A stretch of 63,997 bases of DNA, counting the filler, from an uncultured Methanosarcinales archaeon (GTDB lineage Archaea; Nanobdellota; Nanobdellia; Woesearchaeales; CAYSVS01), in assembly GCA_964434475.1 (NCBI GenBank). It is 3 parts of 3 records of this genome, joined end to end, with 100 filler letters (N's around TTAATTAATTAA, not from the genome) between each part and the next. Parts side by side here need not be neighbours in the genome. Positions count along the whole stretch, not along the records: positions 57,278 to 63,997 come from CAYSVS010000065.1; 2 more parts are not named here. One strand, given 5' to 3'. The position numbers and the translations under genes were made by a program. Numbering within the stretch: position 1 is the first letter of the stretch; every line of letters begins with the position of its first letter. This document shows positions 1,804 through 63,997 of this stretch, one piece after another. The notes beneath the pieces are model-generated. The model did no database searches. It was not told the origin of the DNA and saw nothing but the letters and a program-made list of their open reading frames with translations.

Positions 1804-2907
1804 ATGGAGTTAATAAATAAAGAACTGTTGGATCAGACAAAGAATTTCTTCAATAACATAACAAAAGAGGACAAGGTCGCAGTAATCCACCACACAGATC
1901 CAGACGGAGTGTGCAGCGGAGTTATAGTTGCAAAAACTATCCAAAAAATAAGGGACAAACCTATTGACCTAAGACTTAATCAAAATTCATCAGAATTGTT
2001 TATATCAAAAGATACTCTAGAAAAACTGAAAGAAAAAAGAATAAACAAAGTTATAATTACAGACATGAGTGTTGACCAAGATGTATCAGAAAACAAAATA
2101 GAAACTATTCCTGATTTTGCCAAATTATTGATAATAGACCACCACAAGCTATATAGAAACTTAAATTCTAACAAAATAGTGTTAATAAAGCCGCATATGA
2201 TATACAAGGATGTAAATTCTGCACAGTATTGCGCTGCCAAATTTTGTTTTGATATATGCAGCAAACTTGCAGATATAAAAGAGCTTGATTGGATAGCAAG
2301 CATAGGAATTATAGGAGACTGCGGATACGAAACATGGAAGTTTTTTGTAGATAATATACTGGCAAAATATGAGATTGAAAAGAAAACAGACATATTCTAT
2401 ACAGAACTGGGAAGAATTGCAGATATTGTAAGTTGTACTGAAGCCTTTGATATAGATAAGATTGAAAAAGCTTTTGATATAATATATAATGCTAAAAATC
2501 ATAAAGAGGTTCTTAATTCTGAATTAAGAAAGTACAAAGAAGATGTTAAAAAAGAAATAGATTTCTGGAGAACAAACCTAAAAGAAAAAGCAGAAATTAA
2601 AGAAGATCTGATATATTATGAAATAAATCCAAAATATCCTGTGAAATCAAACTTATGCACTTTGCTGAGTTTTGATTTTCCTGACAAAACCATAGTTCTC
2701 GTACAGGAGATGGAAGGGGAAAATTTGATAGCAGTAAGCGCGAGAAGAAGAGACAATAAGGTCGCTATGAACGATATGCTGGAATATGCTGCCAAAGGTC
2801 TGGAAAAAGCAGGAGGGGGCGGACATATACCTGCAGCAGGAGGAAGGTTTCTCAAGAAAGATAAACAAAGATTCAAGAAGAGGTTGTTCGAATGGCTCAA
2901 GATATAA
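1804..2907 (+). CDS. DHH/DHHA1 family phosphoesterase
   Basis: HHTDPDG, IITD, IDHH and C-terminal GGGHIPAAG motifs. Confidence 0.9.
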   Translation: MELINKELLDQTKNFFNNITKEDKVAVIHHTDPDGVCSGVIVAKTIQKIRDKPIDLRLNQNSSELFISKDTLEKLKEKRINKVIITDMSVDQDVSENKIETIPDFAKLLIIDHHKLYRNLNSNKIVLIKPHMIYKDVNSAQYCAAKFCFDICSKLADIKELDWIASIGIIGDCGYETWKFFVDNILAKYEIEKKTDIFYTELGRIADIVSCTEAFDIDKIEKAFDIIYNAKNHKEVLNSELRKYKEDVKKEIDFWRTNLKEKAEIKEDLIYYEINPKYPVKSNLCTLLSFDFPDKTIVLVQEMEGENLIAVSARRRDNKVAMNDMLEYAAKGLEKAGGGGHIPAAGGRFLKKDKQRFKKRLFEWLKI

Positions 2908-4424
2908 AAAAATACCTTGATATGGCGGCATGGGAAAAGCTGCAGAACAGCATCTCAAAAAAACTAGGAATAAGCATAAGGACAATAGATACACAAGGAA
3001 ACGAGATTATCAGCAGCGGAAATATACCTTTTTATTGTACGATAATAAGATCAAAAAACAAAGGAAAGATGTCATGTAAAGAAGAACTTAAATTTAACTT
3101 GGAAAAAACATCTGAACAAAATAAAGAACATATAGAATTTGAATGCTGTCATGGACTGATGAATATGTTATTTCCTATCACAATACACAACAGAAAGATA
3201 GGAGGCATAGTCTTCAGCTATAAGAAAGAAAAGGAAAACGAATTTTTTGAAAGATTGTCAAAAAAATTAAGCATAAGCAAAGAAGAACTTTCAGAAGAAT
3301 ATTCTAAAATACAGACGTACAGCGAAAGAGACATAAACATATTCAAGAACATAATTTCATCAATCACAGAAACAATACCAGAAATAATATATCACAGCCA
3401 TATGAACAATAAAAAAACTTCCGCATTAAGGACTATAAAAAAAATCTCTTCTGTTGTAAATTCTACCTTGGAAATAAAAAAGATAATGACAGAGATAATA
3501 AGATTCATAGTAGAAAACAATTTTGCAAAAACATGTTCAGTGGTCACATTAAGCCCTATGAGAAGATACACATTGAATGAAAATTCATTGCCGAAGCATT
3601 ATACCAATTTCGAAAACAATATAGCAAACGAAGTCATAAAATCAAGGAAAATAAGAGGAGTAGAAAATATATCAAAAGACAAAAGGTTCAATTCAAGATC
3701 AAACTTCAACATCTATGATGCTTTGATAAGCATACCCATAACAAACCAGTTTGAAGTGCTTGGAGTACTTAACATGTATTCTGAATCAGGAGATAAGCTT
3801 AAGCAAAATATAGAATTGTTCTCAATAATCGCAGATCAGGCAGGAATAGCTATAGCTAACGCTAAACAATACGAACAGATGAAGCATTCTGCAGATACTG
3901 ACAAGCTCACAGGACTTTATAACAGAAGATACTTTATGGATGTTCTTGAACAAGAAACAGCAAGAAGCAGAAGGTTCGGGCATCCTATATCTGTAGCGAT
4001 GATAGACATAGACCACTTCAAGCAGTATAATGACAATAACGGACATCCTAAAGGAGATAAGCTGCTTAAAGAATTAGCATCATTGTTAAAAGAATGTGTA
4101 AGGGATGTTGATACAGTTGGAAGATACGGAGGAGAAGAATTCATCATAGTTTTTCCTGAAATAAAACCCAACGAAATATTGAGCGCTGCAGACAGGATAG
4201 TAAAATCAGTTGCAAATAACAAGTTTGATTCTGGAGAAAAACAGCCAGGAGGCAAGATTACGATAAGTATGGGATTACTGACATGCATGGATGTAGGGAT
4301 GGATGCAAAAGACATAATAAAAGAAGCAGATAATGCACTGTATGATGCAAAAAACGACGGAAGAAATAAAGTCCAGGCAAAAGTTTTGCTCAAGAAAGGA
4401 ATGAAAGCGATCGATGTGAATTGA
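2892..4424 (+). CDS. Diguanylate cyclase with PocR-like and GAF sensor domains
   Basis: TDKLTGLYNRR, DIDHFKQYND, GHPKGD, RDVD I-site and RYGGEEF; N-terminal PocR-like C..C..CCHGL; GAF before the cyclase. Confidence 0.92.
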   Translation: MAQDIKKYLDMAAWEKLQNSISKKLGISIRTIDTQGNEIISSGNIPFYCTIIRSKNKGKMSCKEELKFNLEKTSEQNKEHIEFECCHGLMNMLFPITIHNRKIGGIVFSYKKEKENEFFERLSKKLSISKEELSEEYSKIQTYSERDINIFKNIISSITETIPEIIYHSHMNNKKTSALRTIKKISSVVNSTLEIKKIMTEIIRFIVENNFAKTCSVVTLSPMRRYTLNENSLPKHYTNFENNIANEVIKSRKIRGVENISKDKRFNSRSNFNIYDALISIPITNQFEVLGVLNMYSESGDKLKQNIELFSIIADQAGIAIANAKQYEQMKHSADTDKLTGLYNRRYFMDVLEQETARSRRFGHPISVAMIDIDHFKQYNDNNGHPKGDKLLKELASLLKECVRDVDTVGRYGGEEFIIVFPEIKPNEILSAADRIVKSVANNKFDSGEKQPGGKITISMGLLTCMDVGMDAKDIIKEADNALYDAKNDGRNKVQAKVLLKKGMKAIDVN

Positions 4425-21579: not shown

Positions 21580-23868
21580 TCAGCCGTAGTAACTAGGCTT
21601 CTCTTTTTCCATCTCTTTTGCTTTAGCTGATGTAAACTGTTTTTTCAAGTTTTTGTATGCGTCATTTATCTCTTTTGTTATGCTTGGAGCGATAGACTGC
21701 ATAGCCTGCTCAAAATTTTTCATACTTACCTCTTTGGATTTAATATCTTCCCTTAATGCAAGCATAGCAGATTCTCTGCATATAGCTTCTATGTCTGCAC
21801 CTGAACAACCATCGCAGTCTTTCGACAGTTTTTTAATGTCGACATCTTTTGCCAAAGGCATAGTGCTTGTGTGAAGCTCAAAAATCTTCTGTCTTGTATC
21901 TAAGTCAGGAGCCTCTACAAGTATTATCCTGTCAAACCTGCCAGGCCTTAACAAGGCTGTATCGAGCATATCGGGACGATTGGTTGCAGCAATAACAACA
22001 ACATCATGCAATTCTTCCAAACCATCCATCTCGGTCAAAATCTGGTTGACAACACGCTGAGAAACCTGACTGTCTGAACTTAAACTTCTAGCAGGAGTTA
22101 TACTGTCTATTTCGTCAAAAAAGATTATTGTAGGAGAAGTTTGTCTGGCTTTCTTGAATACTTCTCTTACAGCTTTCTCTGATTCGCCTACCCATTTGCT
22201 CAAAACTTCAGGGCCTTTAACAAGTATAAAATTCGCATCTGATTCGTTTGCTACTGCTTTTGCAAGCAGCGTCTTTCCTGTACCAGGTGCTCCATAAAGC
22301 AAAATGCCCTTAGGAGGTTTTATGCCCAATCTGCTGAATACTTCGGGTTTTTTCAAAGGCCATTCAACAGCTTCCTTCAATTCCTGTTTGACAGTCTCTA
22401 ATCCACCTATATCTTTCCATTCAAGGCTCGGCACTTCAACTAAAACTTCTCTCATAGCACTAGGTCTTACAACCTTTAAAGCTTCCTTGAAATCATCATG
22501 ATTTATGATAAGTTTTTCTAAAAACTCTTTTGGCAGTTTGCCTTCCTCTTTTGTATTTAGGTCAGGAAGCAGTTTTCTTAATCTCACCATAGCAGCCTCT
22601 TTTGCTAAAGAAGATAGATCTGCGCCAACAAAACCATAAGTTATTTCTGCTAAAGACTTTAACTTTACATTTTTTTCTATAGGCATATATCTCGTATGTA
22701 TCTTTAATACGTTAAGCCTGCCTTCTTTACTCGGAACACCTATTTCTAGCTCTCTATCAAATCTTCCGGGCCGTCTAAGAGCAGGGTCTATTGCATTAGG
22801 GATGTTTGTTGCAGCTATAACGATAACCTTGCCTCTTGATTTCAAACCATCCATCAATGAAAGCAATTGTGCTACAACCCTTCTTTCAACCTCTCCTTTA
22901 CTTTCTTCACGCTTAGGAGCGATAGCGTCTATCTCATCTATAAATATGATAGAAGGAGAGTTTTTTTCAGCTTCATCAAATATTTTTCTAAGGTTTTCCT
23001 CGCTTTGACCGTAGAATTTTGACATTATTTCAGGACCGTTTATAACCTTAAAATTGGCATTGGTCTCATTTGCAACAGCCTTAGCAAGCAAGGTTTTTCC
23101 AGTTCCAGGAGGACCGTGAAGCAAGACGCCTTTAGGAGGTTCTATACCGAGCCTCTCAAAAACTTCAGGATGCTTAAGAGGGAGTTCAATCATCTCTCGT
23201 ATCTTTTTTATCTCCTCATCCAATCCACCTATATCTTCATAAGTCACGTCAAGCATCTTTTCTTCTGCAACTTCAACAGCTTCAGGGTTAAGCACTATTT
23301 CTGTGTTGCCTGTAATAGTCACTGCAACATTCTTTGGCTGTAAGTCTGCAACTATAAACTTTATATCACCAAAACCAAAACCCATCATACTCTCATCAAG
23401 CATATCAAATATATCATTAAAGAAAGGGCTATGGCTTGTTGTAGTCTTTCTTCTTTTTGCACCGCCTAAAGAGACTATGTCGCCTTTGACAGCCACCCTG
23501 CCTAACAAACCTTGCTTAAATGTTCCAGGGCTTGCTCTTACTACTATGCCTTTTTGAGCTGGAGCGATGATTATCTTTTTAGCTTCCTTCACTTCTGCTT
23601 TCCTTACACTGACCATCTCTCCTATTCCGGTCTTAGCATTTCTCCTCACTATACCATCCATACGTATCAGATTTAATCCTATATCTCCTGGATATGCCCT
23701 ATCTGCTATAGCCACTGTTCTTCTATCGCCTTCAATCTCAACAATATCTCCAGGTCTTATGCCTAACTGATGCATAAAACTAGTGTCTATCCTTACTATG
23801 CCTTTATTTACATCGTCCTGTACAGCTTCATGAACTTTTAATTGTAATTGTTTTGGTTTGTCAGCCAT
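21580..23868 (-). CDS. cdc48: CDC48/VCP family AAA ATPase
   Basis: N-domain plus two AAA modules ([16 protein letters not shown]), [11 protein letters not shown]-terminal YYG. Confidence 0.97.
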
Positions 23869-28626: not shown

Positions 28627-28726
28627 NNNNNNNNNNNNNNNNNNNNNNNNNNNNNNNNNNNNNNNNNNNNTTAATTAATTAANNNNNNNNNNNNNNNNNN
28701 NNNNNNNNNNNNNNNNNNNNNNNNNN
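28627..28726. other. Artificial contig linker (Ns with TTAATTAATTAA)
   Basis: 100 nt of N with a six-frame stop cassette. Confidence 0.98.
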
Positions 28727-46422: not shown

Positions 46423-46512
46423 AGCCTCTCCCGAGAATTGAACTCGGGACCTTGCGCTTTTTGTTTCTTTATAGAATACCAAGCGCACGCTCTACCACTG
46501 AGCCAGAGAGGC
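46423..46512 (-). tRNA. tRNA-Thr(GGT) with 18-nt intron at 37/38 (46459-46476)
   Basis: Acceptor GCCTCTC/GAGAGGC, anticodon stem TGCGC/GCGCA, T arm CCGAG-TTCAATT-CTCGG; relaxed BHB. Confidence 0.92.
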
Positions 46513-57177: not shown

Positions 57178-57277
57178 NNNNNNNNNNNNNNNNNNNNNNN
57201 NNNNNNNNNNNNNNNNNNNNNTTAATTAATTAANNNNNNNNNNNNNNNNNNNNNNNNNNNNNNNNNNNNNNNNNNNN
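57178..57277. other. Artificial contig linker
   Basis: 100 nt of N with TTAATTAATTAA. Confidence 0.98.
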
Positions 57278-57313
57278 TGCACTAAATTTTAGGTCTTCCC
57301 GTTGGTCAGACGA

Positions 57314-57431
57314 ATATAACAGCGATTAAGAGATTCCGAAGTCTTGCAGACTTCTCCATCCAAATTGAATTTTTGGAGGTCGCTATGCTCCGCTCTCAAA
57401 AATCCAACTTCTCTTAATCGCGATGTTAGCC
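57314..57431. mobile_element. attC-like hairpin site 1
   Basis: ATATAAC-A-GCGATTAAGAGA...TCTCTTAATCGC-GA-T-GTTAGCC with branched internal stems. Confidence 0.65.
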
Positions 57432-57668
57432 AAAATTTTCTTACTGCCTCCTGTCGTCGGTAAACCTCGAGTCATTTAGATAGGTGCCTTCGTTAAATCG
57501 AGAAAAAGAAAACGGTTTTTCAATTGCTTCGCAACTAAACCTAACAATGATTTAACGGCTCATTACATTCGACCCAAATTTTTACTTACTTTAAAACAGA
57601 CGAGAGAGGGGGCTAGTGCTACGCACATATACACTCCCTGCGGTCGAATTTATTAAATAGATATTATT

Positions 57669-58406
57669 TTATTGATTGTCTTCTTTTAAATTTTTCAAGA
57701 CCATTTCTTTTATTTCTCCTGTAAAAAAAGTTTTAAACATTTGCATTACTTTCTTTTTAGGCATTTCTGTAGAATCTATTGAAACACCAAATGATTTTTT
57801 ACTTGCAGCCCAGGTCATACCAATCAAACTTCTAACTTTTGGATTATAATCTTCCCATTTCGTATCATGTTTTAATTCTAGCAATCCTTTTTTAAGTTCT
57901 TCATCGTACGGAATCTTAACTTTTCCTTCTTTTAACATCTCTTTAAAATAATCTCTTGCAGATACAAAATTTGTGGGACTTACTATTTCAAATTTTACAT
58001 CTCTTAAAACATCATTAAGAATCTGTTTTATCTGTGTTTCAGGCACTAATTCACCTTGAATTTTCTCCAATTTCAAAGATAATTCGATAATTAATAGTGC
58101 ATCATAAATGGTTAACTCATTATTTGTCATCAAATCAGTTATGTTTTGTATAATAAAACTACCTGACTTTTTTTCAACAACTATTGCATAAGATTCAGTC
58201 GGTTCAATTCCTTTTTCAGTATTTCCATTTCCTGAAACACCCATATAATTACCATCTTTTTTAGCATCATGAGTTGCAATCATCATTGCTTTCAAAATAG
58301 GATGAGGATCATAATCAGGATTTCTTTTAGTTTTAATGATAACATAATCTAAATATCCCATTATCGCTCCGTTAACATCTTCATCTATCATTTTTTTCCT
58401 CTTCAA
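57669..58406 (-). CDS. Hypothetical protein (cassette cargo)
   Basis: 245-aa ORF; start may be ATG 58391. Confidence 0.7.
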   Translation of the reverse strand: MKRKKMIDEDVNGAIMGYLDYVIIKTKRNPDYDPHPILKAMMIATHDAKKDGNYMGVSGNGNTEKGIEPTESYAIVVEKKSGSFIIQNITDLMTNNELTIYDALLIIELSLKLEKIQGELVPETQIKQILNDVLRDVKFEIVSPTNFVSARDYFKEMLKEGKVKIPYDEELKKGLLELKHDTKWEDYNPKVRSLIGMTWAASKKSFGVSIDSTEMPKKKVMQMFKTFFTGEIKEMVLKNLKEDNQ

Positions 58407-59754
58407 ATAATAATCCTATTGGCGAATTAATTATGTCTTTTTTCTTATTATAATCTAAATTAGTTTTAATCCATGAAGTTAAGCCACCAGCAATTGCAAC
58501 TCCCCCACCTACAATCCCCAATACATTTTGTGATGCTATGCCTCCCATCAAACTAATTGTTCCACCAAGTATTGCAGAAGACGATGCAGGATAATTAAAA
58601 TTAAAATCTTGCTCAATCTTTTTTAATTCAGTTTCATGCTTTTTAAAAGCTTGTCGTAAATTATAATTTACTTGACTAGCTACTTCATTAATATTATCAC
58701 AATTAGATTCTGTTATTTCTTTCCGTAGTATTTCTCGAAAATCTTGCAAACAAGATTTTTCTCTCGCAGTAATTACATCATCAATTTTTAAATTGCCAAT
58801 CCATTTAACTTTATCGAGTGTAATGCTATTTAGTATAAAAGAGTCAGAATTTATTTGATTAACTTGTTTTTGTAAAAACCATTTGTAAAAATGCCAAGAA
58901 TTAATACCATCAAAAGAATTTAACAAATTGAAACTTTGTGAAAATTTTAAATCAGATATATTTCTAACCATACTTCCTTTAACGTTAGTATAAAATGCTT
59001 CAGAAATATTATTGTTATGGCTATCTAATTCATTGGCTTGGCTTAAAAGTCCATTTAAACCAATCTTTAAGTCAGGAGAATTCAGAAGGGCTGGTTTTAA
59101 AATTTCTCTTTTTTTAATTTTAGAAGTAAAACTTTCAATTTCTGTATTGTCTGCGAGAAATTTATTTAATGATTCTTCGTCTTTGAAATTTTCATCAAAA
59201 AGCTCATTAAAATACTCAATCGTTTTAATGTCTACATCAATAAAACTAGGTTTTCCTTCTTTCCAGAAAATTGATCTGGGGATTATTCTCAGAATTGGTT
59301 TTTCAGAATCATTAATTAAAGCCTTTTTAAGGTCAAGCATATTAAAAGCATGTTTAAAGAATAGCCTATTAAACTCAAATGGACTAGTTCTTGATTTTAA
59401 TAATAATGAACTGGTTAAAGGGTCTGAAATTATATTAGTGTCAACATATAACCCAGTTTTAGCAACATAATTTTTTGCATTAAGAGGGGAGAAATCACCA
59501 CAAAAATTTGCGTTTATGCCATCTAAAGAAGAAATATCTTTTCTTAATAGCTCAGAATTTTTTTTAAAAAGTAAATTGACTTCTTCAACAATGGTATCCG
59601 ATGTTTGATACAAAATCCTTGAAGTCATAGGTTTTTTTAATAAATTCTCAACTGAACTTATTGGATCGTCTAGTTTGAAATACCTCCCATAATAATCCTC
59701 AATAATTTCAAAATATGTTTCATAGATTGATTGAATTTTGTGATTATTTCCCAT
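58381..59754 (-). CDS. Hypothetical protein with C-terminal Gly-rich hydrophobic hairpin (cargo)
   Basis: 457-aa ORF; AILGGTISLMGG...VLGIVGGGVAIAGGL. Confidence 0.75.
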   Translation of the reverse strand: MGNNHKIQSIYETYFEIIEDYYGRYFKLDDPISSVENLLKKPMTSRILYQTSDTIVEEVNLLFKKNSELLRKDISSLDGINANFCGDFSPLNAKNYVAKTGLYVDTNIISDPLTSSLLLKSRTSPFEFNRLFFKHAFNMLDLKKALINDSEKPILRIIPRSIFWKEGKPSFIDVDIKTIEYFNELFDENFKDEESLNKFLADNTEIESFTSKIKKREILKPALLNSPDLKIGLNGLLSQANELDSHNNNISEAFYTNVKGSMVRNISDLKFSQSFNLLNSFDGINSWHFYKWFLQKQVNQINSDSFILNSITLDKVKWIGNLKIDDVITAREKSCLQDFREILRKEITESNCDNINEVASQVNYNLRQAFKKHETELKKIEQDFNFNYPASSSAILGGTISLMGGIASQNVLGIVGGGVAIAGGLTSWIKTNLDYNKKKDIINSPIGLLFEEEKNDR

Positions 59755-59775
59755 TATAATTACCTATTCTATTTG

Positions 59776-60039
59776 TCATTTGATTTCTCCTATCCATTTC
59801 AAAAAAAATATAAATCCAATTATTAAACCTGCCCCAATAATTCCAGGCAATCCTGCCAACCATTCAAAAATACCGAGCCACCAAGGGATTGCAGCATCAG
59901 CAATAATCTCAGTTCCTTCTTGTAGATTATCTGGATTACCGGGTTCATTAGCATTTTTTATACTCCATGATAGTAAGCTAAAAAGTAATGGTATTGCAAC
60001 AATCAATCCAATAATAGCCCCTATTTGTTTTCCATCCAT
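59776..60039 (-). CDS. Small membrane protein (cargo)
   Basis: Hydrophobic helices at both ends; ATG 60039 just after the upstream stop. Confidence 0.65.
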   Translation of the reverse strand: MDGKQIGAIIGLIVAIPLLFSLLSWSIKNANEPGNPDNLQEGTEIIADAAIPWWLGIFEWLAGLPGIIGAGLIIGFIFFLKWIGEIK

Positions 60040-60040
60040 T

Positions 60041-61375
60041 TTAGTAATACCCACTATTTTTTCTCAATCTATAACAATGGCATCTGCCCCTCATATATCT
60101 TGTCTTAATGAATCTGTCATTTTGATAAATTGCATTTTCGACTTGATCTAAACTTAATTTCAATGCCCTGTGTATCTGATGTTTAGTTAATGCACCATGA
60201 TGTTTTAATAGATTAGCTATCATATCTACTATTTGTTCTCTTGAGTAATATGTATTTTGTTGAAAAGTTCTTTTAGAAGGTTGGGACCAAACAAATTGAT
60301 TATTACGCCTTGAAGTATTAATCTCTTTTTCTTCATATACTTCTCTTCTAGTTCCAAGATGTTCTAGAGTATCCTTTTGGTATTTTTCATTTTTCAAATT
60401 CTCTTTAATTTCACTTGCTTTATCTACTGTTTTAATAATGCCAATAGTTGTAGAGATTAAGGCCACTAAAGGTCCAGCTATTGATGATATCACTCCCAAA
60501 AATTCACTTAATAGATTTTTTAGGTCATTTAATAAACTCTTCTTTGGTTCAACATGCACATATTCAATTTGGTTAACAAGCCGCTCTAGTCTAATAATTT
60601 TAGTTTTTTCTATTTTATTCACATATCTTTTTGTATGTAATACCTTAACAATAGTTTTGAGATTATTCTTCAATACTGGTAACTGTTGTTTTTGGAATGC
60701 ATCGATTTTAGGTTTCTCTTCATCATATCCAGAATATTCATCTATCTCATTAAACTCAATTCTTTTCTCTTCTTCTTTTCCAAATACAAAAGTGAATTCA
60801 CTCTTTATTGAATTTTTAATAATTTCAAGGATTTCTTTTGCTTCCATTAAATCAAGTTCATCTAGTGACTTAGTTAACTTATTGTATCTTGAACTTAAAA
60901 AACAAGGAAAATGTTTTTGAATAATTTTTAAGTGATTTATAGAATTATTACATAATTCTCGATATTTTGGATTTAATTTCTCACTTAATTTTTCAAGACT
61001 ATCTTTAGATTCTTCGATTACCTCGTTGAATTCCTCTCTAAAAGTATAAAATCTTGGATGAATTGAGATATTATCATCACTAATCTTTATTATTACCTCA
61101 GTAATAAACGAATCATTATAATAATATTGAGTATTCTTTAAGAAAAATGTATTGTCCCCTGAAAAATTATTATTGGAAATTCTAAATTCTTTGTTTGGCG
61201 CATCAAATTGTATATTTAATTTTGTATCAGATATATTATACTTTTTTAATTCGGAACTATTAGATGTAAATATTTCATTAATTTTGTGATTTTTAACTTC
61301 ATTTTCTAAATCAATATGTAATATGATTTCCTTTTCTTTCTTCTCTAAACTTATTGTACTGATTTTATACTTCAT
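60041..61375 (-). CDS. Hypothetical protein, possible C-terminal winged HTH (cargo)
   Basis: TAATG coupling at 61375; LTKHQIHRALKL...VENAIY. Confidence 0.7.
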   Translation of the reverse strand: MKYKISTISLEKKEKEIILHIDLENEVKNHKINEIFTSNSSELKKYNISDTKLNIQFDAPNKEFRISNNNFSGDNTFFLKNTQYYYNDSFITEVIIKISDDNISIHPRFYTFREEFNEVIEESKDSLEKLSEKLNPKYRELCNNSINHLKIIQKHFPCFLSSRYNKLTKSLDELDLMEAKEILEIIKNSIKSEFTFVFGKEEEKRIEFNEIDEYSGYDEEKPKIDAFQKQQLPVLKNNLKTIVKVLHTKRYVNKIEKTKIIRLERLVNQIEYVHVEPKKSLLNDLKNLLSEFLGVISSIAGPLVALISTTIGIIKTVDKASEIKENLKNEKYQKDTLEHLGTRREVYEEKEINTSRRNNQFVWSQPSKRTFQQNTYYSREQIVDMIANLLKHHGALTKHQIHRALKLSLDQVENAIYQNDRFIKTRYMRGRCHCYRLRKNSGYY

Positions 61376-62250
61376 TATAGTTTTATCTCCCTTTCTTTCA
61401 ATCCTCGTTTTTTCATCCAATCTTTCACTCCTTCTTTAACATGCTCTAAAGCCTTTTTTTTGTTATATAATCCTGAAGTTAATTCATACATGATAGAATA
61501 TACTTTATACGCTATGATTGAAATAACCATCTCATCGGAGATTGGAGCATCTTTTTCAACTTCAAGAGTCGCCTTTCTATTTACTTTTTGGGCTTTATCT
61601 GGGCTGAAATGATAAATAGAAATTCGAACATCATTTAAGTACAGGATTTTCTTATAAAACTTCTTTAATCTAATTTGTTTTAAATAATCACTCCCTTGTT
61701 TAATAAAGCTTCCCAATGAAAAATATCTATCTTTACTTAGTTCATTAGCTTTAGTTCTATCTGTTTTATTGATCTTTCTTAATAGTTCATATTTCAGGAC
61801 ATATTCACAACAATTTATAGCCGAAGCAATCGCAGAATACCAAAGCCCCATTTCATAGGATAAATACGCCTCTTCTGCAAATCCTTTGATTAATTGAGGC
61901 ATCCTATACCAATCAGGATTGTCATCGTACCAATCTGTAATTATTACATGTGGTTCAGCATATTGTATGTGTCTTATGTCCGGAGGGGAAATCTCCTTAG
62001 GATAGATTTCTCCATTTTCATACTGAAATCTCCAAGTCCTATGATTTTTTCTAGTTTGCATTAAGAAATTGAAGGTATCTTGTTTATCTTTAGAAGTTTC
62101 TTTTTTATTCTTCTTAATTTCTTTTTCCAATTCCTTTATTTGAGGGATTAAACCTCTAATATACTTATGTTTTTCATATTCTAATTGAGTATTTGGATCA
62201 AGTGGACCAAATGTTCCTTTTCCTTGATAAACAAAATCTGCTTTTTTCAT
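61375..62250 (-). CDS. HEPN-superfamily (DUF4145-like) protein, putative RNase (cargo)
   Basis: EEA..SY..GLW.SAI......E..LK helix and RISIYH (Rx4H). Confidence 0.6.
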   Translation of the reverse strand: MKKADFVYQGKGTFGPLDPNTQLEYEKHKYIRGLIPQIKELEKEIKKNKKETSKDKQDTFNFLMQTRKNHRTWRFQYENGEIYPKEISPPDIRHIQYAEPHVIITDWYDDNPDWYRMPQLIKGFAEEAYLSYEMGLWYSAIASAINCCEYVLKYELLRKINKTDRTKANELSKDRYFSLGSFIKQGSDYLKQIRLKKFYKKILYLNDVRISIYHFSPDKAQKVNRKATLEVEKDAPISDEMVISIIAYKVYSIMYELTSGLYNKKKALEHVKEGVKDWMKKRGLKEREIKL

Positions 62251-62257
62251 GTTTTTA

Positions 62258-62956
62258 CTAAAATAATTTATTCTTAACTTTTCCCCACATCTTCTTTATT
62301 TTCATCCATATTTTTAATATAATCTTCTCATAAAAAAGCTCTTTCCCGAAATATCCCAGTCCTGAAACAAAAACACCATATATGAATATCATAAAATACA
62401 TTCCTGCAAAGAATACACTTTGATAAGCTACTGTTAATATGGGGGGAATAACAAAGTTAATTCGTTTTAAAAAATCATTTAAGATATTATCAACATTGCT
62501 TACAGCCAAAAAGATAAATAAAAACAACATGATAAGATTTACAAAGAATCTGGCTCTTTTTCTATTTTCAATAGCTTTGTCTACTTTTTCCAATAGCTTT
62601 GCAAAGATAATAAGACCTGCTATGAAATAGAAAGCATTCAAAACAACATCAAGAAAAGATAAAGTCATATCTGTATATATCTGATATGTCAGTAGTGCTA
62701 CCACTCCTGCAATTGTTGCTAAACATCCTACAAATAATACCGCTTCAAAAGATAATTCTTTATCTTGACCCCATAAAAAGTTTTTAAGAATTAATAAAAC
62801 TGCAACAGAGGTTGCTATAGAAATAAATCCTGCAAATGTTGAATTCAGCTTATTGATTGTATCAAAGCTTACCGGGAGCAAAGCTAGAAAGATTCCTAGA
62901 ACGAAAATCATTTTTTCATTCTTTTCTATAAACTTTGCTAAAGTAAGTTGAGTCAT
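62258..62956 (-). CDS. Multi-pass membrane protein (cargo)
   Basis: About six hydrophobic helices. Confidence 0.75.
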   Translation of the reverse strand: MTQLTLAKFIEKNEKMIFVLGIFLALLPVSFDTINKLNSTFAGFISIATSVAVLLILKNFLWGQDKELSFEAVLFVGCLATIAGVVALLTYQIYTDMTLSFLDVVLNAFYFIAGLIIFAKLLEKVDKAIENRKRARFFVNLIMLFLFIFLAVSNVDNILNDFLKRINFVIPPILTVAYQSVFFAGMYFMIFIYGVFVSGLGYFGKELFYEKIILKIWMKIKKMWGKVKNKLF

Positions 62957-63218
62957 TTTTACCCCCTATTGAGTTAAATATATGCTCTAGAATATAACTT
63001 TTTCGTTTTTAAATAAGAAGCCATTGTTCTTTTTCAGAAAAAGAACCAAAAACAGCCCCCTCTCTCGTCCTAACGGACATATTGTCTGCTACGCAGTAAT
63101 TGATATTAAAGTAAGTAAAAACTACGGCACCTATCTGATTCTTCGGTAGTAAGAAAACTCTGCGCTCCCTTTGGTCGCTTGGGGACGCTGCGCTTTCGTC
63201 GCTTCGCTCCTCACCCTC

Positions 63219-63242
63219 GGCTAACAGGATCCGATGTTAGTT
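63219..63242. mobile_element. Minimal attC-like site 2
   Basis: GGCTAAC-AGGATCC-GA-T-GTTAGTT; same AACA...GA-TGTTAG geometry as site 1. Confidence 0.55.
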
Positions 63243-63997
63243 TCAATAAATCTGGAGTCCTAAGAAAGGAAGGGGGCAATTTCTAAAACGAAAAATTTAA
63301 AAACTATTTAAATAAAATATCTCTATATGGCAGATTCAGAAGAAAAAATTCAATTTATTCCATTAATTGTTGGTTTGATTGTGCTTTTCTTCATAGGATA
63401 TATTGTTAAGATTCTTCTACCACCAGAATATCAAATTTATATCTATATTTTTGCAGGATTAGTTGTTGTTGGAATTGGAATTATAATATATTTTTGTATA
63501 AAAAATATTGATTTTAGAGAAAAAACCTTTTCAGTTCTTAGAAAGTTAGCTGCTGGAATAAGCAAACTTGGACTTGATGTTTTAAAAAACATGGAAGAAG
63601 GCGATAGAAAAGGTAAAAAGAAAAGAATTCCAATCTCAAAAGAAATAAAAAATAAGGTTTATGATATTGCTGGTGGAAAATGTCAAGAGTGTGGTAAAAA
63701 AGGTAATTTAAAGATTCACCATATTGATGGAAATCCATCAAATAATAGAATTACTAATCTTATTCTTCTTTGTGGAAATCATCATGATGATGCTGACAAA
63801 GGAGTGATTCCTAAATGGAGATTAAAAAATATTAGAGATAAACAAGCTACTCCCGACCACACATCTTATCAAAAATAGAAATTGCCCCTTGATTCTTTGT
63901 CTTTATGTACCACTTCGTTCTTTTGATTGACGGACTCCAGATTTACTCTGCGGACGCAGGTTTCCAGAACTCCGCTTCGCTCGTAACTGGAAACGAA
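63236..63997. mobile_element. Cassette-like unit 2 (HNH gene within inverted repeats); right end probably beyond the window
   Basis: TAAATCTGGAGTCC (63247-63260)/GGACTCCAGATTTA (63932-63945); GGGGCAATTTCTA (63273-63285)/TAGAAATTGCCCC (63876-63888). Confidence 0.65.
63327..63878 (+). CDS. Membrane-anchored HNH endonuclease
   Basis: Two N-terminal TM helices; CQECG...IHHIDGNPSNN...NLILLCGNHH. Confidence 0.88.
   Translation: MADSEEKIQFIPLIVGLIVLFFIGYIVKILLPPEYQIYIYIFAGLVVVGIGIIIYFCIKNIDFREKTFSVLRKLAAGISKLGLDVLKNMEEGDRKGKKKRIPISKEIKNKVYDIAGGKCQECGKKGNLKIHHIDGNPSNNRITNLILLCGNHHDDADKGVIPKWRLKNIRDKQATPDHTSYQK

Follow-up and report, generated by a model that had tools for sequence, protein, structure and literature searches.

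Complementary cassette ends in a putative integron-like array found without an integron integrase in an archaeal genome

Introduction

What kind of element encloses its genes between ends that can pair with one another, segment by segment, on either side of the cargo? The question is raised by C65, a contig of 6720 bases from an archaeal genome (assembly GCA_964434475.1, labelled G000 below, with C65 and similar names denoting its contigs), in which six genes lie between five complementary pairs of short segments. C65 is a whole, separate contig and occupies positions 57278-63997 of the 63,997-nt stretch of DNA that was analysed (the window); being complete, it could not be extended in this assembly. 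The rest of the window consists of contigs C13 (1-28626) and C14 (28727-57177), and the artificial linkers N44-TTAATTAATTAA-N44 at 28627-28726 and 57178-57277 join the concatenated contigs, carry no biology and do not allow features to be read across them.

An initial annotation had taken the region for an integron-like array of cassettes that recombine as folded single strands. In the sections of PMC2727003 used here, the integron site attC is described as follows: one strand folds into a hairpin of ~55-140 nt that carries R and L boxes, the central spacer stays unpaired, and single bases on the R''-L'' arm are extrahelical. Archaeal integrons, as presented in the excerpts of PMC9668308 used here, are arrays composed of short open reading frames (ORFs) 'generally in the same orientation', with attC sites that fold like bacterial ones and mostly without the integron integrase IntI. 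Such integrons, and clusters of attC sites lacking an integrase (CALINs), are what is known; added here is a complementarity that spans the cassette, in an array where several defining features of integrons are absent or half present. A narrow literature search by title turned up no published description of such cassette-spanning complementarity. The best reading of C65 is that it is a fragment of a large cassette array that follows the logic of integrons without an integron integrase.

Results

Complementary ends enclose both cassettes of C65

Coordinates of array features on C65 refer to the + strand of the window. All five complementary pairs that the initial annotation had described around the six-gene block are present (5/5), four as exact reverse complements and one matching at 12 of 13 positions. 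The left end module of this cassette (cassette 1, 57424-57614) contains the blocks TGTTAGCC (57424), TTTTCTTACTGCC (57436), AGATAGGTGCC (57478), TTTTTACTTACTTTAA (57579) and GACGAGAGAGGGGGCT (57599), and their respective partners in the right end module (63054-63226) are GGCTAACA (63219-63226), GGTAGTAAGAAAA (63145), GGCACCTATCT (63126), TTAAAGTAAGTAAAAA (63106) and AGCCCCCTCTCTCGTC (63054). The order is colinear and antiparallel, as had been claimed, with gaps of 4, 29, 90 and 4 nt on the left and 61, 8, 4 and 36 nt on the right. The unit starts with (G)TTAGCC and ends with GGCTAAC. Both 16-mers and the 11-mer have no other occurrence in the 1.5-Mb genome, and the 8-mer TGTTAGCC is found at 11 places. 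With the long blocks unique, the repeats are not two copies of one dispersed miniature inverted-repeat transposable element (MITE), a possibility that the initial annotation had itself raised.

When the two 200-nt ends of cassette 1 were folded together with DNA parameters, the free-energy gain of co-folding (ddG) was -38.5 kcal/mol; 16 mismatched right ends averaged -6.7 kcal/mol and reached -11.7 kcal/mol at best. The complementarity reported for the ends is confirmed. The inserts between the blocks had been described as often self-folding, and this was not upheld: all four fold no better than shuffled sequences (z = +0.76, -1.23, -0.88 and -0.85).

The adjoining HNH unit (cassette 2, 63235-63997) is enclosed by complementary pairs of its own, 63248-63260/63932-63944 and 63273-63284/63877-63888, each with a chance expectation of 0.00. 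The left blocks are AAATCTGGAGTCC (63248-63260) and GGGGCAATTTCT (63273-63284), and the complements lie in a right end module (63877-63997) that is 85% identical to positions 23559-23667 of a genome of the same order, G041. This module also holds a conserved hairpin, CTGCGGACGCAG (63948-63959), and a second one, GTTTCCAG...CTGGAAAC (63960-63994). Cassette 2 runs off the contig, with a loose end at 63995, and public Logan contigs extend it beyond C65 into a long-form junction of the kind described below.

A conserved junction occurs in a short and a long form

Units are separated by a junction with the consensus (A/T)TAACA, a GC-rich palindrome of 4-13 nt, GA (sometimes TA or AA) and TGTTA-N4-CAAT, in which TAACA...TGTTA is invariant. 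Five base pairs are conserved in each arm, and the spacer between the arms is either 2-13 nt long, with modes at 8 and 10, or a hairpin of 100-165 nt. Most junctions measure 16-23 nt in all. The long form, in which the hairpin replaces the palindrome, accounts for 4 of 24 junctions in G000 and for 3 of the 16 found by regular expression in G041.

C65 carries one of each, at the places where AACA...GA-TGTTAG hairpins had been reported (57317-57428 and 63222-63239). The long junction (57317-57428; fold -20.8 for the top strand and -23.5 for the bottom strand) consists of TAACA (57317-57321), the stem arms GCGATTAAGAG (57322-57332) and CTCTTAATCGC (57411-57421) with a branched interior between them, a GA bulge (57422-57423) and TGTTA (57424-57428). 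In the short junction (63222-63247), TAACA (63222-63226) is followed by the palindrome GGATCC (63227-63232), GA (63233-63234), TGTTA (63235-63239) and GTTTCAAT, which extends to 63247.

Eight long hairpins from three genomes share a common structure of 5 bp formed by TAACA and TGTTA, a GA bulge, a 12-bp stem and a branched interior, and compensatory double changes were found in 9 of its 17 pairs. The bottom strand was the more stable by 1.9-5.1 kcal/mol in all seven long junctions folded. Short palindromes correspond to the outermost bases of long stems, for example GCGAT...ATCGC to GCGATCGC; the short forms may be either hairpins that have shed their inner part or vacant target sites for a small inserted element. 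Short junction sequences are shared between families to the exact base. The junction palindromes resemble type II restriction sites (GGATCC, GGGCCC, GCGCGC, GGAATTCC, GCAATTGC, GGCATGCC and GCGATCGC), and the same few recur at junctions across families.

Hairpins in the 3' end modules of G000 show a strand bias in their triloops, with TNC on the top strand (GNA on the bottom) in 21 of 48 hairpins versus a single GNA; the background is 199 versus 213 of 3283. GNA triloops closed by C:G form unusually stable minihairpins in DNA, and are a loop type stable in DNA rather than RNA. The bias therefore provides a circumstantial pointer to single-stranded DNA rather than RNA. According to the part of PMC2727003 used here, attCaadA1 has a GAA triplet at its tip.

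Many units are complementary to their own far ends in four genomes

In a 5-mer test, the five nucleotides that follow TGTTA were compared with the five that precede TAACA at the unit's other end, and complementarity at 4 or more of 5 positions was scored as pairing. Unit limits were defined by regular expression, which variant junctions in G041 escaped, so that some 'units' are compound. Seven of 17 units paired in G000 (permutation p=0.00015; mismatched pairs, 7% of 272), 9 of 15 in G041 (0 of 20000 permutations; mismatched, 6%), and 3 of 7 in each of G263 (p=0.013; mismatched, 2%) and G307 (p=0.017; mismatched, 7%). Pooled over the four genomes, 22 of 46 cassettes were paired, against 2-7% of mismatched combinations, and the partner at the same junction matched at a mean of 1.7-1.8 of 5 positions. 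Complementarity of cassette ends, which the initial annotation had put forward as a general rule, is thus far above chance, and as a rule it fails for about half of the cassettes.

Pairing over longer distances was followed with chains of exact seeds of 9 and 10 nt, k=7 being too noisy. The chains between the ends of one unit surpassed those with all 16 mismatched partners in 10 of the 17 G000 units (seeds >=9 nt) or 11 of 17 (>=10 nt). Among the 14 G000 units of 3.1 kb or less, eight exceeded all but at most 5 of ~300 random genome segments of equal length, a comparison that leaves out the three longer units, C65's included; in G041, 7 of 15 units exceeded all 200 random segments. Co-folding gave ddG values of -22 to -43 kcal/mol for six G000 units, and a unit's own end was the best partner in 7 of 17. 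A general repeat search was flooded by AT-rich chance matches and did not return the five C65 pairs, and blastn of a cassette against its own reverse complement found single blocks only, because the pairing is patchy. Ten paired nucleotides at the core are joined by blocks of 9-16 nt spread over up to ~200 nt, and some short units show patchy complementarity across the coding region as well.

One single-gene cassette (C79 3390-4252, locus L010), encoding a RibD_C/DHFR-like protein of 235 aa, is a patchy palindrome along its entire length. It has 12 colinear blocks of 9-15 nt, 137 nt in total, eight of them inside the ORF. None of 298 random segments came close, and controls that were reversed only or complemented only gave 18 nt or less.

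A 710-nt unit in G041 (G041-3755), containing a 126-aa ORF, has ends homologous to those of cassette 1; positions 63117-63227 on C65 are 91% identical to a G041 end module. The G041 unit starts with TGTTAGCCAAAATTTTTTTACTGCC and ends with GGCAGTAAAAAAA...GGCTAACA. Relative to TTTTCTTACTGCC/GGTAGTAAGAAAA on C65, one pair is altered on both sides, from C:G to T:A, a compensatory change that preserves the pairing. The inner blocks differ between the two units, yet each set pairs with its own partner. Because the two units share ends with a double change and have different, self-pairing inner blocks, the end modules are portable and covary, and do not stem from the cargo.

The array and its cargo

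The further units that an integron-like array would imply were found, in G000 and in other genomes, co-oriented within each contig. G000 has about 30 junctions, solely on the small contigs C51, C58, C65, C66, C69, C70, C79, C88, C96 and C111, with one orientation per contig and no exception. This is the picture of a repeat-rich array broken by the assembler. In public Logan contigs the read depth of the C65 ends was 68.7 and 24, versus 9.4 for the cargo. The left end of C65 (57278-57316, +; depth 68.7) is the 3' tail of a preceding, cut-off cassette, a repeated end module with an 87% match on C70.

Complete units in G000 (n=17) are 380-5825 nt long and contain one to six ORFs on either strand. 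With the ORF-less units of ~200 nt found in G022, the cargo ranges from 0 to 6 genes, and the orientation of the element is independent of the cargo strand. A scan of the other array contigs of G000 (64 ORFs) revealed S-adenosylmethionine (SAM) methyltransferases, two MazEF-like pairs, HEPN/nucleotidyltransferase, GmrSD and Schlafen/AlbA proteins, a DNA methylase with an ATPase and a DpnI-like protein, an SDR protein, the RibD_C protein, a fur-znuACB operon and a truncated tyrosine-recombinase fragment. A cargo with MazEF, HEPN/nucleotidyltransferase, methyltransferase and restriction-related genes is what cassette arrays typically contain.

The fur-znuA-znuC-znuB operon seemingly lies between two junctions (C51 8646-end; C66 oriented 1-2274), and the end of C51 and the start of C66 fit together through znuB. 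If that join is correct, a housekeeping-type metal-uptake operon appears to be packaged as a unit of the array. On C111 (L003), the 88-aa truncated tyrosine recombinase and AEP-TOTE primase-like and HSDR_N ORFs are found just upstream of a TGTTATGCTCAAT junction, whose left-end word also opens units in G041, G307, G290 and G275. In G263, a junction with the left end TAACAGGAATTCCGA-TGTTATGTCTAAT occurs at least four times (C4/L173 oriented 14734 and 18541, C24 and C27 of that genome), one pair being 3.8 kb apart, which suggests duplicated cassettes.

Distribution and reshuffling of units

G000 comprises 1.5 Mb in 148 contigs, with 33% G+C and 97% completeness, and its small-subunit (SSU) rRNA is archaeal (1412.7 bits with the archaeal model). 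Among the matches listed in public records, the named ones with the junction motif carry Candidatus Woesearchaeota or Nanoarchaeia titles, and the other matches to the loose pattern are mostly single chance occurrences in bacteria. Because the junction-bearing records have these titles, and with an archaeal SSU rRNA, we infer that G000 is a Woesearchaeota-like, DPANN-type archaeon.

Of 41 genomes sampled from the order, eight, G000 among them, carry the strict junction motif. A looser motif was found in 95 of 401 genomes, with at least 3 hits in about 17 of them, and a control pattern never gave more than 2; the tally includes three unpublished genomes with 1-2 hits each, on which no claim rests. 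G041 has 16 or more contiguous sites on a 559-kb scaffold beside housekeeping genes, and further arrays are present in G022, G263 and G307. G000 (C55, L014) and G022 (C4, L028), which belong to different families, have their arrays beside one common stretch of chromosome, with 80% nucleotide identity over 5 kb of flank, and share no cargo. A DNA search did not find this flank in two genomes of the same genus, which means that either the locus as a whole was transferred horizontally or array contigs were mis-binned.

Cassettes have been reshuffled among related genomes. A unit of G317 (2769-3878) has 85-90% identical copies in the congeners G381, G146, G407 and G405, next to other neighbours, and the unit neighbouring it in G317 is 97% identical to one that in G405 lies on another contig. 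The homology between G317 and G407 sets in at the junction, past TGTTA-N5; upstream of it the two have different units. Because the copies differ in their neighbours and the G146 copy is without ends, units are exchanged singly, with cargo and ends separable. Of the shuffled, empty or circular sites that the initial annotation had suggested looking for, shuffled ones are therefore present, in that congeners hold the same cassette beside other neighbours, and no circles or empty sites occur in assembled contigs. Joints from 57654/5 to 63942/5, with 12-13 other letters between, were rejected as excision products; they are other copies of repeated end modules.

Recombinases and transposases

The integron integrase model TIGR02249 gave a best score of 35.7 bits in G000, against a cut-off of 265, and was also below cut-off in G041, G022, G020, G015 and G025 (6/6 array genomes with G000). 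Hits in these five other genomes cover model positions 2-180 and 235-315 and leave the IntI-specific insertion (~180-235) unmatched. As the initial annotation had stated, there is no tyrosine recombinase within the window. Its suggestion of a genome-wide search for IntI or Xer-like recombinases yielded no IntI; on the Xer-like side, G000 encodes, outside the window, a 212-aa recombinase comprising nothing but the catalytic domain, in which R, K, HxxR, H and Y are present, and the 88-aa fragment inside the array. A serine recombinase is encoded on C11.

Of 40 relatives, 32 encode Xer-like proteins of 270-310 aa, as do all five of the further array genomes. None of the Xer-like genes of G307, G317, G133, G263 and G380 adjoins the array. 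G263 has a single tyrosine recombinase and at least 15 junctions; a junction-like word beside that gene was examined and is not a junction. The flank at the array start shared by G022 and G000 encodes no recombinase (GNAT, PPDK-like, and two membrane proteins, conserved); the two conserved ORFs had been considered as recombinases and were rejected as membrane proteins. No recombinase flanks the inner end of the G041 array, and no convincing dif-like single site was found elsewhere in G000.

An IS200-like Y1 (HUH) transposase (Y1_Tnp, 87.9 bits) with flanking hairpins is encoded on C102 of G000 (L175), beside a 288-aa DDE transposase. The hairpins upstream include one with TGCGGACG, a sequence similar to the CTGCGGACGCAG hairpin conserved at the 3' ends of cassettes. 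Of five other genomes with arrays, two gave a Y1 match, and of five without arrays none did; Y1 was not found in the long-array genomes G041, G022 and G307.

Genes on C65 and elsewhere in the window

The cargo of cassette 1 is encoded on the - strand by ORFs of 245 aa (57669-58406), 457 aa (58381-59754), 92 aa (59776-60054), 459 aa (60041-61420), 291 aa (61375-62250) and 232 aa (62258-62956). None of the six proteins was assigned to a family in Pfam, NCBIfam or PADLOC; the matches obtained were a weak one to LeoBC (E = 0.0013) and, for the 459-aa protein, solely a sub-threshold HTH_9 (19.2 bits vs a cut-off of 23.4). The 457-aa protein has 10 relatives, none named, among 5.8 billion proteins searched, and a metagenome search with it returned two loci. 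On one of these, an unrelated metagenome contig (L170 168-2238; 69% protein identity), the pair of 457-aa and 245-aa genes is kept together in another organism too, with the other four C65 genes and any junction absent; no second copy of the complete cassette thus came from this search. Cassette 2 encodes an HNH endonuclease of 183 aa (63327-63878, +), with HNH_3 at 28.5 bits, over the cut-off, a match to ZorE-like HNH (5e-6) and a hydrophobic N-terminal half.

A search of C65 with Rfam 15 gave a chance-level sR7 match alone (18.8 bits vs a gathering score of 37; E = 0.77), and a tRNA scan of the C65 region found nothing. Elsewhere in the window, ARAGORN called a tRNA-like gene of 90 nt (46423-46512, -) with a four-base anticodon (tggt) and no amino acid assigned, possibly an archaeal tRNA that contains an intron, or else a false call.

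Discussion

How might such units move? We consider the question evenly balanced as to whether they do so by site-specific recombination at the junction, on a folded single-stranded substrate and with an enzyme acting in trans that is most likely Xer-like. When the array becomes single-stranded, the two ends of a unit would zip together, rebuild a duplex TGTTA-N5/N5'-TAACA box and place the flanking junctions next to each other. Cutting within the TAACA...CAAT junction would then fall to a recombinase encoded elsewhere, for which the host's Xer-like tyrosine recombinase is the most probable candidate; the unit would be set free in circular form, its own ends folded into a long hairpin tipped by the junction, and the released circle could re-insert at any junction. 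All of this, from the single-stranded substrate and the acting enzyme to the point of crossover and the excised circles, is predicted from the arrangement of the sequences. More tentatively, the arrays may represent an IntI-independent 'zipper cassette' system of Woesearchaeota-like DPANN archaea, with units that are giant imperfect palindromes, ends that assemble the site in single-stranded DNA, and a host Xer-like or HUH Y1 enzyme acting in trans.

Several observations weigh against recombination of this kind. In the 5-mer test, 24 of 46 cassettes score 3/5 or less, and a unit's own end is not its best co-folding partner in 10 of 17 G000 units. Most junctions have 6-13 nt between TAACA and TGTTA, where no local folding is possible, and the variable spacer (mostly 8 or 10 nt) would be awkward for a single recombinase on duplex DNA. 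The triloop bias is weak in G041 (5 vs 3, of 25). Copies of one cargo in G317 and G407 have different N5 sequences (TGTTC vs AACTC), so that the crossover may lie anywhere between TAACA and CAAT, for example at CAAT rather than at G/TT. The copy of the G317 cargo in G146 has no junction and no end modules, which fits a palindromic chassis equally, and that one end-module family encloses six genes on C65 or a 126-aa ORF in G041 also fits a chassis. No recombinase is linked to the array in any array examined, the recombinases of G000 being the 212-aa catalytic domain and the truncated fragment only, and neither circles nor empty sites were seen in Logan contigs of three runs from one study. Finally, array contigs are assigned to G000 through binning alone, and the C55 flank was not found by DNA search in two genomes of the same genus.

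A palindromic chassis is the alternative that survives best, and we think it unlikely rather than implausible. The units would be non-autonomous and MITE-like, with long, segmented terminal inverted repeats (TIRs; TGTTA.../...TAACA) derived from a hairpin-shaped empty element into the middle of which genes were dropped later, and an HUH Y1 or a DDE transposase would insert them side by side at the palindromic junction. Unrelated cargos within the same family of end modules, the ~200-nt units without ORFs in G022, the gene that has end modules in G317 and none in G146, and the several genes on either strand that a unit can hold are all as expected of such elements; so is the Y1 gene that lies beside a DDE transposase on C102, with Y1 in 2/5 other array genomes versus 0/5 array-free ones. 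A TIR transposon or MITE, however, should leave a direct duplication of its target. The ends here are inverted, the flanks of the units are inverted rather than direct, and no target-site duplication is seen; the units are moreover clustered head to tail. Strict head-to-tail co-orientation with an AAC...GTT junction is a product of site-specific recombination, not of transposition, and complementarity through the coding region of short units, as in the 12 colinear blocks of the C79 cassette, counts against genes inserted late.

The case for Y1 itself is mixed. Elements of the IS200/IS605 group, and REP sequences, which HUH Y1 transposases move by acting on subterminal hairpins, resemble the array in their strand-biased single-strand hairpins, IS200/IS605 elements excise as single-stranded circles without target duplication, and G000 has a Y1 gene. 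Unlike the units described here, their left and right ends are not inverted repeats of each other or mutually complementary, and they are not known to be lined up in one orientation with a palindrome at each junction. In addition, Y1 was not found in 3 of the 5 other array genomes, which are the long-array genomes G041, G022 and G307.

We judge it rather doubtful that the locus is an ordinary archaeal integron array or CALIN, in which long hairpins would be attC sites, short junctions decayed attC sites, IntI lost or unassembled, and the extended pairing idle. Archaeal integrons and integrase-less attC clusters have been published, some of them in metagenome-assembled genomes of Woesearchaeales, and in the parts of that work used here (Ghaly et al. 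2022, PMC9668308) they share with the present array tandem co-oriented units and an inverted AAC...GTT core. The likeness goes further. Inverted cores (R''/R') are present, and a unit's opening bases are complementary to the inverse core found at the 3' end of that unit (22/46 cassettes vs 2-7%); the long junction is a stem with a bulge of extrahelical bases and a branched tip, and its bottom strand is the more stable; the short palindromes match the outer bases of the long stems. ORF-less units, cargo of toxin-antitoxin, methyltransferase and defence type, and contents that vary between relatives are further common features. The integrase model, by contrast, stays below cut-off in 6/6 array genomes. 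Integron cassettes are mostly single, promoterless, co-oriented ORFs, whereas units here contain 0-6 ORFs on either strand. Long junctions make up just 4/24 in G000 and 3/16 in G041; most junctions, at 16-23 nt, cannot fold, and short ones are conserved to the base between families, unlike products of decay. The attC features given in the sections of PMC2727003 used here are not found as such, in that there is no unpaired central spacer and one GA dinucleotide bulges from the other arm in place of single extrahelical bases on the R''-L'' arm. Neither GATGTTA nor TAACATC occurs in the attC sequences of the PMC9668308 supplement, within the portion used, and complementarity of the ends over up to ~200 nt and into coding regions is another difference.

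It is improbable that the junction is instead a double-stranded, dif-like core through which cassettes exploit the host Xer and become stacked, with end pairing as a by-product. Stacked Xer-dependent elements and pdif modules are known. CTX- and TLC-type elements at dif, and the pdif modules of Acinetobacter plasmids, have no recombinase of their own and stack at one locus, as do the units here; the single strand of CTX phage folds into a hairpin resembling a dif duplex and integrates in that form, and pdif modules are small, often of toxin-antitoxin type, and flanked by inverted sites. The array also has no dedicated recombinase, Xer-like enzymes are nearly universal in the order, G263 combines at least 15 junctions with a single tyrosine recombinase, and G000 (C55) and G022 have their arrays beside the same stretch of chromosome. 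The sites, however, are direct rather than alternating. An Xer site is 28-30 bp long with arms of ~11 bp and a fixed centre of 6-8 bp, whereas the junction has arms with 5 bp invariant, no more, and a spacer of 2-13 nt or a 100-165-nt hairpin. The ends are family-specific and long, no similar single site was found elsewhere in G000, and compensatory changes in cassette ends and strand-biased triloops would be left unexplained; a role of XerA in the array can be no more than presumed. The archaeal dif site is an 11-6-11 inverted repeat in the text of PMC2958812 used here, which counts in favour of a dif-like core.

That the complementary ends act in RNA, as stems that process or stabilise a unit within a long transcript, in the manner of archaeal rRNA stems or bulge-helix-bulge circular RNA, is very improbable: archaeal rRNA and intron processing stems do have kilobase-range flank pairing with symmetric bulges near the stem base, long-range pairing here flanks a payload, and the same palindrome at neighbouring junctions would place two GA bulges face to face across a short helix, but the bulge-helix-bulge is a 3-4-3 motif that 2-nt bulges 4-13 bp apart do not fit, neighbouring palindromes mostly differ, protein genes lie on either strand independently of element orientation, cassettes are reshuffled as DNA, GNA-type triloops favour one DNA strand, and there is no Rfam match.

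Arrays of this kind are of interest in several respects. For annotation, tools that seek IntI or canonical attC sites will miss most such arrays, and assemblers break at them. Integrons are the textbook gene-collecting device, defined by IntI and a folded attC; here the same bookkeeping, with co-oriented units, an AAC...GTT core and unit starts complementary to unit ends, is found in small archaeal genomes without IntI. The junctions are mostly too short for folding, and there is an additional feature under selection, the pairing of a unit's two ends over kilobases. The occurrence of the same gene with and without end modules in congeners offers natural material on the birth of cassettes. If pairing of the ends assembles the recombination site, it would represent a new solution to synapsis in single-strand recombination. 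If the proposal is true, the arrays, which hold accessory toxin-antitoxin, methyltransferase and defence genes, would constitute a new route of gene flow in DPANN archaea.

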